Assembly: GCF_046105845.1 (NCBI RefSeq)
Contig: NZ_CP151004.1
Source of the DNA: Escherichia coli
GTDB taxonomy: Bacteria; Pseudomonadota; Gammaproteobacteria; Enterobacterales; Enterobacteriaceae
Length of the DNA stretch: 64,000 nucleotides
Strand: one strand, 5' to 3'
Shown: positions 3,325-12,097 of the stretch, piece after piece
Layout: every line of letters starts with the position of its first letter
Position numbering within the stretch: position 1 is the first letter of the stretch
Notes under the pieces: model-generated
Told to the model about the DNA's origin: nothing
What the model saw: the letters and a program-made list of their open reading frames with translations, nothing else
Database searches by the model: none
Made by a program: the position numbers and the translations under genes

Positions 3325-3376
3325 CCGAATTTCGATTAACGCTCAGTCTCTGACTGAGAAAACTGGAAGCATGCTA

Positions 3377-8200: not shown

Positions 8201-8499
8201 TCCCCTTACAACATGGACTGATCCTCGCGGCAATCTTATTCGTTCTTGGCTTAACTGGTCTGGTTATCCGTCGCAATCTGCTGTTTATGCTGATTGGTCT
8301 GGAAATCATGATTAACGCCTCTGCGCTGGCCTTTGTGGTCGCCGGAAGCTACTGGGGCCAGACCGACGGTCAGGTGATGTATATTCTCGCCATCAGCCTC
8401 GCGGCGGCAGAAGCGAGTATCGGCCTAGCGCTGCTGCTGCAACTTCACCGTCGTCGCCAGAACCTGAACATCGATTCAGTAAGTGAGATGCGCGGATGA
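8197..8499 (+). CDS. nuoK: NADH-quinone oxidoreductase subunit K
   Basis: 100 aa, 3 TM segments, overlaps nuoJ stop. Confidence 0.95.
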
Positions 8500-10337
8500 A
8501 TATGCTTGCCTTAACCATTATTTTGCCATTGATTGGCTTTGTCCTGCTGGCGTTCTCCCGTGGGCGCTGGTCTGAAAACGTCTCGGCGATCGTTGGCGTT
8601 GGCTCTGTAGGCCTGGCGGCACTGGTAACTGCCTTTATTGGCGTCGACTTCTTCGCTAACGGCGAGCAGGCATACAGCCAGCCGCTGTGGACATGGATGT
8701 CGGTAGGCGACTTTAACATCGGTTTTAACCTGGTGCTGGACGGCCTGTCGCTGACCATGCTCTCGGTGGTTACTGGTGTGGGTTTCCTTATTCACATGTA
8801 CGCCTCCTGGTATATGCGCGGTGAAGAGGGCTACTCTCGCTTCTTCGCTTACACCAACCTGTTCATCGCCAGCATGGTAGTTCTGGTGCTTGCCGACAAC
8901 CTGCTGCTGATGTACCTCGGCTGGGAAGGCGTGGGCCTGTGCTCCTATCTGCTGATCGGTTTCTATTACACCGATCCGAAGAATGGCGCAGCGGCAATGA
9001 AAGCGTTCGTCGTGACCCGTGTGGGTGACGTCTTCCTCGCTTTCGCGCTGTTCATTCTTTACAACGAACTGGGCACCCTGAACTTCCGCGAAATGGTGGA
9101 ACTGGCACCAGCGCACTTTGCTGACGGCAATAACATGCTGATGTGGGCGACGCTGATGCTGCTGGGCGGTGCGGTCGGTAAATCTGCGCAGTTGCCGTTG
9201 CAGACATGGCTTGCCGACGCGATGGCGGGCCCGACGCCTGTCTCCGCGCTGATCCACGCCGCAACGATGGTAACCGCGGGTGTCTACCTGATCGCCCGTA
9301 CCCACGGCCTGTTCCTGATGACGCCGGAAGTTCTGCATCTGGTGGGCATTGTTGGGGCGGTTACGCTGCTGCTGGCCGGTTTTGCGGCGCTGGTACAGAC
9401 CGACATCAAACGTGTTCTCGCTTACTCTACCATGAGCCAGATTGGCTACATGTTCCTCGCGCTTGGCGTACAGGCATGGGATGCGGCGATTTTCCACTTG
9501 ATGACTCACGCGTTCTTTAAAGCGCTGCTGTTCCTGGCATCCGGTTCCGTCATTCTGGCCTGCCATCACGAACAGAACATCTTCAAGATGGGCGGTCTGC
9601 GTAAATCTATTCCGCTGGTTTATCTCTGCTTCCTGGTGGGCGGCGCAGCACTGTCGGCACTGCCGCTGGTCACTGCGGGCTTCTTCAGTAAGGATGAGAT
9701 CCTCGCGGGTGCGATGGCGAATGGTCATATCAATCTGATGGTGGCTGGTCTGGTCGGTGCGTTTATGACCTCGCTCTACACCTTCCGTATGATTTTCATC
9801 GTCTTCCACGGAAAAGAACAAATTCACGCTCACGCCGTGAAAGGGGTAACTCACAGCCTGCCGCTGATTGTGCTGCTGATCCTTTCCACCTTCGTTGGCG
9901 CACTGATTGTACCGCCGCTGCAGGGCGTGCTTCCGCAAACGACGGTGCTGGCGCACGGCAGCATGTTGACCCTGGAAATTACCTCTGGTGTGGTCGCGGT
10001 GGTCGGCATTCTGCTGGCAGCCTGGCTGTGGCTGGGTAAACGTACTCTGGTGACCTCCATCGCCAACAGTGCGCCGGGCCGTCTGCTGGGCACCTGGTGG
10101 TACAACGCCTGGGGCTTTGACTGGCTGTACGACAAAGTGTTCGTCAAGCCGTTCCTGGGTATTGCCTGGTTGCTGAAACGCGATCCGCTGAACTCAATGA
10201 TGAACATCCCGGCTGTCCTTTCCCGCTTTGCAGGTAAAGGTCTGCTGTTAAGCGAGAACGGTTATCTGCGCTGGTATGTGGCATCCATGAGCATCGGTGC
10301 GGTCGTGGTGCTGGCACTGTTGATGGTACTGCGTTGA
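8496..10337 (+). CDS. nuoL: NADH-quinone oxidoreductase subunit L (antiporter-like)
   Basis: 613 aa polytopic membrane protein. Confidence 0.95.
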
Positions 10338-10471
10338 GTTGTTGGCTGAGTGAATATACCCGGCGTTGCGCCGGGTCTGTGAACTAAGAATAAATTTTAG
10401 GTAACTGTTCCTGAAGTACAGGCGTCATCGGCGAAGTCAGACCGGATACCGCCAGCGCACAGCAACCGGAG

Positions 10472-10485
10472 CGTACTTAAGTACG
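10472..10485. other. Perfect 14-bp palindrome CGTACTTAAGTACG inside the 230-bp nuoL-nuoM spacer
   Basis: Read directly from sequence; a separate GC hairpin CCCGGCG-TTG-CGCCGGG lies at about 10361-10377. Confidence 0.5.
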
Positions 10486-10567
10486 TGAGGATTGCGAGCA
10501 CTGCCGGGATTCGGGCTGGCGAGTGAGATAGCCTGAGCAGGAGTAAATATAAGGGACATACTTAGCT

Positions 10568-12097
10568 ATGTTATTACCCTGGTTAATACTAATCCCCTTT
10601 ATTGGCGGCTTCCTGTGCTGGCAGACCGAACGCTTTGGCGTCAAGGTGCCGCGCTGGATCGCGCTGATCACCATGGGATTGACGCTGGCGCTGTCGCTGC
10701 AACTGTGGTTGCAGGGCGGTTATTCACTGACGCAATCCGCCGGAATTCCGCAGTGGCAGTCTGAATTCGACATGCCGTGGATCCCGCGTTTTGGTATCTC
10801 TATCCATCTCGCCATTGACGGGCTATCGCTGCTGATGGTCGTGCTGACCGGTCTGCTCGGTGTGCTGGCGGTACTCTGTTCGTGGAAAGAGATCGAAAAA
10901 TATCAGGGCTTCTTCCACCTCAACCTGATGTGGATCCTGGGCGGCGTTATCGGCGTGTTCCTTGCCATCGACATGTTCCTGTTCTTCTTCTTCTGGGAAA
11001 TGATGCTGGTGCCGATGTACTTCCTGATCGCACTGTGGGGGCATAAAGCCTCTGACGGTAAAACGCGTATCACGGCGGCAACCAAGTTCTTCATTTACAC
11101 CCAGGCGAGTGGTCTGGTGATGTTGATCGCCATCCTGGCGCTGGTTTTTGTTCACTACAATGCGACTGGCGTCTGGACCTTCAACTATGAAGAGCTGCTG
11201 AATACGCCAATGTCTAACGGCGTGGAATATTTGCTGATGCTGGGCTTCTTCATCGCATTTGCGGTGAAAATGCCGGTGGTTCCGCTGCATGGCTGGCTGC
11301 CGGATGCGCACTCCCAGGCTCCGACCGCCGGTTCCGTGGACCTCGCGGGGATCTTGCTGAAAACCGCTGCTTATGGTCTGCTGCGTTTCTCCCTGCCGCT
11401 GTTCCCGAACGCGTCGGCAGAGTTCGCGCCAATCGCCATGTGGCTGGGTGTTATCGGCATCTTCTACGGTGCGTGGATGGCCTTCGCCCAGACCGATATC
11501 AAACGTCTGATCGCCTACACCTCGGTTTCCCACATGGGCTTCGTGCTGATTGCTATCTATACCGGCAGCCAGTTGGCCTACCAGGGCGCGGTAATCCAGA
11601 TGATTGCGCACGGCTTGTCGGCAGCGGGTCTGTTTATTCTCTGCGGTCAGCTTTATGAACGTATCCATACCCGCGACATGCGCATGATGGGCGGTCTGTG
11701 GAGCAAGATGAAATGGCTGCCAGCACTGTCACTGTTCTTTGCGGTGGCAACGCTTGGGATGCCTGGCACCGGTAACTTCGTCGGCGAATTTATGATTCTG
11801 TTCGGCAGCTTCCAGGTTGTCCCGGTGATTACCGTTATCTCTACCTTTGGGCTGGTCTTTGCATCTGTTTATTCGCTGGCGATGTTGCATCGCGCTTACT
11901 TCGGTAAAGCGAAAAGCCAGATTGCTAGCCAGGAACTGCCAGGGATGTCGCTGCGTGAGCTGTTTATGATCCTGTTGCTGGTGGTGCTGCTGGTACTGCT
12001 GGGCTTCTATCCGCAGCCGATTCTGGATACCTCGCACTCCGCGATTGGCAATATCCAGCAGTGGTTTGTTAATTCCGTTACTACTACAAGGCCGTAA
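10568..12097 (+). CDS. nuoM: NADH-quinone oxidoreductase subunit M (antiporter-like)
   Basis: 509 aa polytopic membrane protein. Confidence 0.95.
   Translation: MLLPWLILIPFIGGFLCWQTERFGVKVPRWIALITMGLTLALSLQLWLQGGYSLTQSAGIPQWQSEFDMPWIPRFGISIHLAIDGLSLLMVVLTGLLGVLAVLCSWKEIEKYQGFFHLNLMWILGGVIGVFLAIDMFLFFFFWEMMLVPMYFLIALWGHKASDGKTRITAATKFFIYTQASGLVMLIAILALVFVHYNATGVWTFNYEELLNTPMSNGVEYLLMLGFFIAFAVKMPVVPLHGWLPDAHSQAPTAGSVDLAGILLKTAAYGLLRFSLPLFPNASAEFAPIAMWLGVIGIFYGAWMAFAQTDIKRLIAYTSVSHMGFVLIAIYTGSQLAYQGAVIQMIAHGLSAAGLFILCGQLYERIHTRDMRMMGGLWSKMKWLPALSLFFAVATLGMPGTGNFVGEFMILFGSFQVVPVITVISTFGLVFASVYSLAMLHRAYFGKAKSQIASQELPGMSLRELFMILLLVVLLVLLGFYPQPILDTSHSAIGNIQQWFVNSVTTTRP

Follow-up and report, generated by a model that had tools for sequence, protein, structure and literature searches.

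The 230-bp spacer between nuoL and nuoM in this Escherichia coli genome contains, as its core, one copy of a dispersed palindromic (MITE-like) repeat of about 150 bp of the Enterobacterales. The element is a new, lineage-variable member of an old and barely studied repeat family, which we call RSA-type because of its length and copy count. On balance, the evidence tilts toward a repeat-derived RNA hairpin that is part of the nuo mRNA, that is an old resident of this junction, and whose two E. coli spacer forms have been exchanged between lineages by homologous recombination.

The window, by which we mean the whole 64,000-nucleotide stretch that was analysed, includes the nuoL coding sequence at positions 8496 to 10337 (+ strand; a 613-amino-acid ORF named from annotated E. 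coli records that are 99.5% to 100% identical) and the nuoM coding sequence at 10568 to 12097 (+ strand; a 509-amino-acid ORF whose homologues are named NADH-quinone oxidoreductase subunit M). The spacer between the nuoL end at 10337 and the nuoM start at 10568 occupies 10338 to 10567 (+ strand), so that the ORF coordinates confirm the 230-bp separation reported in an earlier note on this DNA. That note had also described most nuo genes as overlapping or lying less than 15 bp apart. The remaining gaps are, in order, 2, -4, 46, -4, 14, 11, -4, -4, and 6 bp, and the description holds for all of these except the 46 bp between nuoF and nuoG. The nuoF-nuoG gap contains a nuoG RNA motif (Rfam RF01748; window 3327 to 3369, + strand; 50.3 bits versus a gathering score of 33). 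Like the hairpin in the nuoL-nuoM spacer, it is a conserved hairpin in a spacer of the nuo operon, but it is a 43-nt single-copy motif and not a dispersed repeat; we know of no function for it. The region surrounding the nuoL-nuoM spacer (10238 to 10667) matches strain 06-00048 at 100% identity and O157:H7 at 99.5%.

The spacer begins with a GC-rich hairpin (10358 to 10376, + strand) located 21 nt past the nuoL stop codon, in which 10358 to 10365 pair with 10369 to 10376 to form an 8-bp stem with a TTG loop (-14.9 kcal/mol). This is followed by an A+T-rich linker (10377 to 10405, + strand) that is partly paired, as a short weak helix, in the predicted fold, and then by a long imperfect hairpin of about 140 nt (10406 to 10545, + strand), which is the RSA-type repeat copy. 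The nearly invariant central core of this hairpin (10449 to 10507, + strand) contains both CAGCGCNNAGNAACCGGAGCGTA, which served as a search pattern, and GTACGTGAGGATTGCGAGCACTG, and its tip is a perfect 14-bp palindrome, CGTACTTAAGTACG (10472 to 10485). A Shine-Dalgarno-like AAGGGA for nuoM (10551 to 10556, + strand) lies just beyond the hairpin, 11 nt ahead of the ATG, and (A)GGGA is found at the same spacing before nuoM in other relatives, including the 18-bp spacer of Yersinia. The GC hairpin and the 14-bp palindrome are both present at the positions given in the earlier note.

Taken singly, the 14-bp palindrome and the GC hairpin are each at chance level for 64 kb. The window contains six perfect 7+7 palindromes versus about 3.9 expected, and four perfect 7/3/7 hairpins versus about 3.9 expected. 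What is beyond chance is the larger fold, together with the match to a dispersed repeat family. RNA fold prediction, which had been proposed as a check, gives a structured spacer with one long imperfect hairpin at 10405 to 10550; this region folds at -61.3 kcal/mol (z = -4.7), a value matched by none of 200 shuffles. For the whole spacer the folding energy is -89.1 kcal/mol (z = -4.6). The predicted fold of the mRNA-sense strand of the element is 8 kcal/mol more stable than that of the antisense strand and includes seven G-U pairs. The fold of the element is conserved, with compensatory changes in 11 of 40 pairs among same-site copies from five genera. Across 92 copies of the family, 95% of the pairs in the hairpin are canonical and 16 of 31 are compensated.

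To place the element, we compared the spacer by BLAST with 5,426 complete E. coli genomes. The segment 10419 to 10536 recurs at 77% to 80% identity in other intergenic regions of every genome (median four places), with related copies between pheM and pheS, pyrH and frr, and qseE and qseG. When 92 copies were combined into an nhmmer profile, it matched the window once, at 10410 to 10537 (E = 5.2e-34; profile positions 7 to 135 of 142). An exact scan with the shared core CAGCGCNNAGNAACCGGAGCGTA, using one genome per bacterial species, identified at least 120 loci, and those listed include Escherichia, Citrobacter, Salmonella, Klebsiella, Enterobacter, Serratia, Yersinia, Pectobacterium, Dickeya, Erwinia, Pantoea, Rahnella, and Aeromonas, as well as Burkholderiales and Xanthomonas. 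The core (10449 to 10507) is conserved in the 92 family members, including those of Aeromonas and Burkholderiales, an invariance that is partly built in, since copies were collected with the 23-nt core pattern. Canonical copies measure about 141 to 150 bp from end to end and have inverted-repeat termini, GAGCCTATCCCAGTAGGCG, with TAA/TTA next to each of them. These termini are missing from the nuoL-nuoM copy, whose outer stems are instead specific to the site, with CCTGA on either side; its subfamily has GCAACC...GGATTGC in place of GAAACC...GGATTTC. At the tip, other copies keep the CGTAC/GTACG stem and have a variable loop.

Among family copies, 29 are in sense and 33 in antisense orientation relative to the flanking genes, with no preference for co-oriented gene pairs, and this absence of bias counts against a general strand-specific RNA role. 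Some copies (six loci) have a hairpin-like insertion of about 60 nt at a fixed point of the 3' arm just past GTGAGGATT, near the tip; enlarged ERIC elements with similar insertions have been described. Matches to the repeat are also present in 145 plasmid records, where they are intergenic or adjoin efflux and transport genes. In the best 30 of the plasmid rows, the features given for the matches themselves include no transposase. One of these copies, 88.6% identical to a Citrobacter copy, is located beside an RND efflux permease gene on many plasmids of Klebsiella, Citrobacter, Enterobacter, and E. coli. Copies of the same subfamily as the nuoL-nuoM copy are present between dnaN and recF at nine loci from Pluralibacter, Citrobacter, a Klebsiella MAG, Pectobacterium, Serratia, and Siccibacter; these have a common site-specific signature across genera and are, at about 93% by a rough visual count, better conserved than the beginning of recF. 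At eight further loci, from Pantoea, Erwinia, and related symbionts, a copy is located just upstream of a yebC-like gene, whose protein begins with MAGHSKWAN.

The repeat family is probably the RSA of E. coli K-12, an identification made by length and copy number only. RSA is given as 150/151 bp with six copies in the K-12 GenBank record (PMC5172473, Table 1), and we found six family places with copies of about 150 bp in each of the K-12 strains MG1655, C600, J53, ME8067, and ER1709. The RSA of the 1997 K-12 genome record and the family described here are thus alike in unit length (150/151 bp versus about 141 to 150 bp for canonical copies), in the number of K-12 copies, and in being palindromic and intergenic. 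They differ in that the nuoL-nuoM copy is absent from K-12 and belongs to a variant subfamily without canonical termini. The version of the NC_000913.3 annotation in which we looked for RSA coordinates lists no repeat features. Our literature search on RSA, on the sequence, and on the nuoL-nuoM spacer returned no description of the nuoL-nuoM copy, no RSA sequence or coordinates, and no functional study of this repeat family. A 12-nt match in a paper on a group II intron is a coincidence with a PCR primer.

Several named elements were considered for the same sequence. In size and hairpin shape the element resembles ERIC (IRU), the 127-bp enterobacterial intergenic repeat, and both are long imperfect palindromes of transcribed intergenic regions whose presence varies among strains. 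The centre of ERIC is by description better conserved than its ends, which is likewise true of the nuoL-nuoM element, and the central palindrome GGAGCGTACTTAAGTACGTGA is identical to the ERIC core GGAGCTTACATAAGTAAGTGA at 18 of 21 positions. However, the likeness is limited to these 21 nt, and its score of 27 falls within the shuffle scores of 27 to 34. The family profile (nhmmer) has no match at E <= 100 in the E. coli or Salmonella ERIC sequence, the two being taken from PMC2759123, and an exact search with the 44-nt ERIC core, reconstructed from the ERIC-PCR primers, found nothing in seven loci. The RSA-type copy number is also much lower than that of ERIC. Since the 127-bp consensus is unalignable beyond the central 21 nt and has no profile match, ERIC membership is refuted, and we regard an ERIC identity of the element as extremely improbable. 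The earlier note had offered a REP-like insertion as one of four options, and this came nearest, in that the spacer does contain a copy of a dispersed palindromic repeat; the element is an RSA-type repeat of about 150 bp, however, and not a REP. At about 130 nt it is much longer than REP/BIME units (about 35 to 40 nt) and is unrelated in sequence, and the GC hairpin at 10358 to 10376 lacks the GTAG tag. What the spacer hairpins share with REP/BIME is that they are stable hairpins following stop codons within operons, and REP-like, GTAG-tagged palindromes do occupy the place of the GC hairpin in the spacers of K-12, Klebsiella, and Citrobacter. The element also differs in sequence from the RU-2/YPAL and RU-3 repeats of Delihas, of which RU-3 is a REP pair.

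Rfam scans of the spacer and of other family copies returned nothing at threshold, with only sub-threshold matches to sX9 and chance matches to microRNAs. Family copies align on their minus strand to the sX9 model (RF02228), with 38 to 42.5 bits in Burkholderiales and Xanthomonas and 29 to 31 bits in canonical E. coli copies. The sX9 RNA ranks among the "sRNAs" annotated most frequently in bacterial genomes (PMC9029176), as a repeat would be expected to. One rival reading is that the element is or includes a gene for a small RNA akin to Xanthomonas sX9, transcribed antisense to nuo. The nuoL-nuoM copy scores 16 bits (E = 4.8) versus a gathering score of 44; the sole minus-strand promoter-like site is a 9/12 match, which is chance frequency, and a terminator is absent. 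We consider such a gene in this spacer scarcely credible. On the opposite strand, one half of the repeat core falls within the model, which comes near its threshold on the Burkholderiales and Xanthomonas copies, whereas the copy in the window is far below threshold and has no sign of independent transcription. These matches suggest that one half of a dispersed repeat has been entered in Rfam as the "sRNA" sX9. Five palindromic repeats from Burkholderiales (Polaromonas, Rhodoferax) and Xanthomonas have the same core as the family with different arms, and score 34 to 42.5 bits on sX9.

Comparison of the spacer with other E. coli, which the earlier note had called for, reveals two forms, of 230 and 163 bp. 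The 230-bp form is present in 723 to 724 of about 5,425 complete genomes (approximately 13%), and its carriers include O157:H7, O55:H7, O127:H6 E2348/69, the E. coli B derivative NEBExpress, O102:H6, and ETEC and APEC strains. Among the sampled carriers, 43 of 45 are 100% identical. In the remaining 87% or so, K-12 among them, the spacer is 163 bp long and contains a REP-like palindrome tagged with GTAG, together with a small hairpin ahead of the ribosome-binding site. Between the E. coli B derivative and K-12 there are no differences over nuoG-nuoK or nuoN; the two differ in a patch of about 3 kb centred on the spacer (window approximately 9000 to 12000), a recombination tract that carries the alternative spacer form. 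Four carriers that represent E. coli phylogroups have no differences in the bin 10251 to 10500, and 1 to 13 differences in neighbouring 250-bp bins.

The same junction varies considerably in related genera. The notion that the spacer might be identical and unstructured in all relatives is contradicted by the two E. coli forms, by spacer lengths of 18 to 289 bp in relatives, and by compensatory changes that keep the hairpin. The element is located directly before nuoM in three Citrobacter genomes and two MAGs, with REP-like palindromes upstream of it, and in five Pantoea/Winslowiella genomes, with a GC hairpin upstream of it. Yersinia enterocolitica has an 18-bp spacer without the element, and the element was not detected in the spacers of Serratia (95 bp) and Erwinia billingiae (97 bp). 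Klebsiella has two REP-like palindromes in 169 bp, Rahnella has a possible remnant, seen by eye, in 96 bp, and the Enterobacter-like locus L137 has a 152-bp spacer with the same GC hairpin, linker, and outer stem and with the interior missing. A GC hairpin is present at the equivalent place in L137, in Pantoea/Winslowiella, and in Erwinia. Our profile search for remnants found nothing significant in the spacers of K-12, Klebsiella, Salmonella, E. kobei, Serratia, Erwinia, Yersinia, and L137, and gave E = 0.99 for Rahnella; by-eye alignment suggests that L137 and Rahnella may be internally deleted derivatives. The 76-bp spacers of Salmonella enterica Rissen and E. kobei have a small hairpin right before the nuoM ribosome-binding site, with AGGCCTC...GAGGCCT in one and AGGCCCC...GGGGCCT in the other. 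These two compensated changes suggest that a hairpin is kept at the nuoM site even without the repeat. It is a matter of speculation that the small hairpin of K-12 and Salmonella (GGTCCTGACGGGAC / AGGCCTCTGTCAGAGGCCT) is an excision scar. Despite differences in sequence, nearly all relatives have one stable hairpin past nuoL and another just before the nuoM ribosome-binding site.

The spacer is also identical beyond the species boundary. A 274-bp tract (10329 to 10602) has no differences from Salmonella enterica subsp. arizonae, in which the flanking nuoL and nuoM are 82% to 92% identical, and the same tract is identical in Escherichia whittamii, so that the E. whittamii spacer is 100% identical to that of the window. 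Identity across three named species would imply either short-patch interspecies transfer or very strong constraint. Because the S. arizonae identity spans the linker, which varies in L137, we read it mainly as recent short-patch transfer and not as selection on each base. Selection on the core has separate support from other copies: in Citrobacter, same-site copies are 93% to 96% identical over the 120-nt element versus about 89% over the nuo genes, and the core (10449 to 10507) is nearly invariant among same-site copies from E. coli to Pantoea, with variation confined to the apical loop, the two positions left free in the search pattern, and four single-sequence substitutions. In our reading, the copy has been resident at the nuoL-nuoM junction for a long time, since the element also precedes nuoM in Citrobacter and Pantoea.

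A competing account is that the element is a passenger only, a decaying selfish palindromic repeat without a host role, whose conservation reflects recent horizontal spread by short-patch homologous recombination. The absence of orientation or context bias in the family is what a DNA-level mobile element would show, the TAA/TTA-flanked terminal inverted repeats of canonical copies are mobile-element-like, and family copies occur on plasmids. Further, the element is missing from this site in most E. coli, as well as in Salmonella enterica subsp. enterica, Enterobacter kobei, Klebsiella, Serratia, and Yersinia; a recombination patch of about 3 kb separates E. coli B from K-12, and the S. arizonae identity takes in the unstructured linker. 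Against this, the same-site Citrobacter copies and the dnaN-recF copies are more conserved than the adjoining coding DNA, and substitutions in the outer stems are compensated. The core is nearly invariant between E. coli and Pantoea although their NuoM proteins are about 87% identical, a contrast of which the search pattern explains part. Conservation of the core at the same junctions across genera is far above what a decaying mobile element should show, and we judge the passenger account unlikely but not negligible. At the other extreme, the core of about 59 nt and the compensated outer stems could be a selected cis-acting module that was recruited into Enterobacterales housekeeping operons (nuoL-nuoM, dnaN-recF, and upstream of yebC) and has relatives in Aeromonas, Burkholderiales, and Xanthomonas (sX9); it would be either a DNA site or an RNA that an RNase or RNA-binding protein recognizes. 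We hold this to be the more doubtful of the two. The near-invariance in sequence of the central 59 nt means that the element may be a protein-binding site, another of the options in the earlier note. Two conserved GGA motifs were considered as CsrA sites, but the likeness was too weak to claim.

The scan of the + strand of the spacer found no promoter-like and no terminator-like site, from which we infer that the element is transcribed within the nuo mRNA. Two stable hairpins inside the operon might also suggest that transcription is attenuated or terminated there, so that nuoMN is transcribed less, an internal attenuator being one of the options in the earlier note. The stems are followed by CTGTGAAC and TAAATATA, respectively, and neither has a T-run after it; with no terminator-like site in the spacer either, the proposal finds no footing in the sequence. 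All Nuo subunits are needed 1:1, so nuoM and nuoN are required in the same amount as the others, and attenuation at this junction is very improbable.

An effect on mRNA stability or processing, the remaining option of the earlier note, is the preferred functional reading, and a plausible candidate role. The order of stop codon, GC hairpin, A+U-rich linker, long hairpin, and Shine-Dalgarno sequence matches that of an intercistronic stability or processing site, and we tentatively suggest, well short of an assertion, that the three parts are such a module. In this scheme, the hairpin of about 140 nt would fold just upstream of the nuoM ribosome-binding site, and the GC hairpin past the nuoL stop codon would shield the nuoA-L segment from 3' exonucleases. 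RNase E might cut within the A+U-rich linker (10377 to 10405, a candidate site), or RNase III might cut the long helix, after which the long hairpin would cap the 5' end of the nuoMN segment. Any effect on the stability of nuoA-L and nuoMN would be modulatory and not essential. The 1:1 requirement for Nuo subunits leaves differential stability of the segments without an obvious purpose, and the absence of orientation or context bias in the family counts against a strong mRNA role. That the element is not essential follows from its absence in approximately 87% of E. coli and from the 18-bp spacer of Yersinia enterocolitica. The stability proposal is made by analogy with ERIC hairpins in Yersinia mRNAs, which alter transcript stability via RNase E (PMC2229807), and with Correia elements (NEMIS) of Neisseria, which are cut by RNase III (PMC10969869). 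Like the nuoL-nuoM element, these are co-transcribed palindromic repeats that form long hairpins, and their RNase III cleavage or RNase E sites shift transcript levels (PMC10969869, PMC2229807); they belong to other families, whereas the nuoL-nuoM element is known here from its sequence and predicted fold.

If the hairpin is without effect, the element is an ordinary fossil repeat that is useful as a recombination marker. K-12 is the strain in which complex I has been best studied, and it differs from the sampled B derivative (NEBExpress) at this junction of the complex I operon, a difference that could matter for comparisons of respiration or expression between B and K-12. If the hairpin affects the fate of nuoA-L or nuoMN mRNA, it would be a natural, allele-swappable, repeat-derived RNA element in the operon of an essential pathway. 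If the reading as a selected module were true, the 230-bp RSA-type and 163-bp REP-type spacers would amount to a functional polymorphism that tunes the expression of complex I and sets the two main laboratory lineages, B and K-12, apart.
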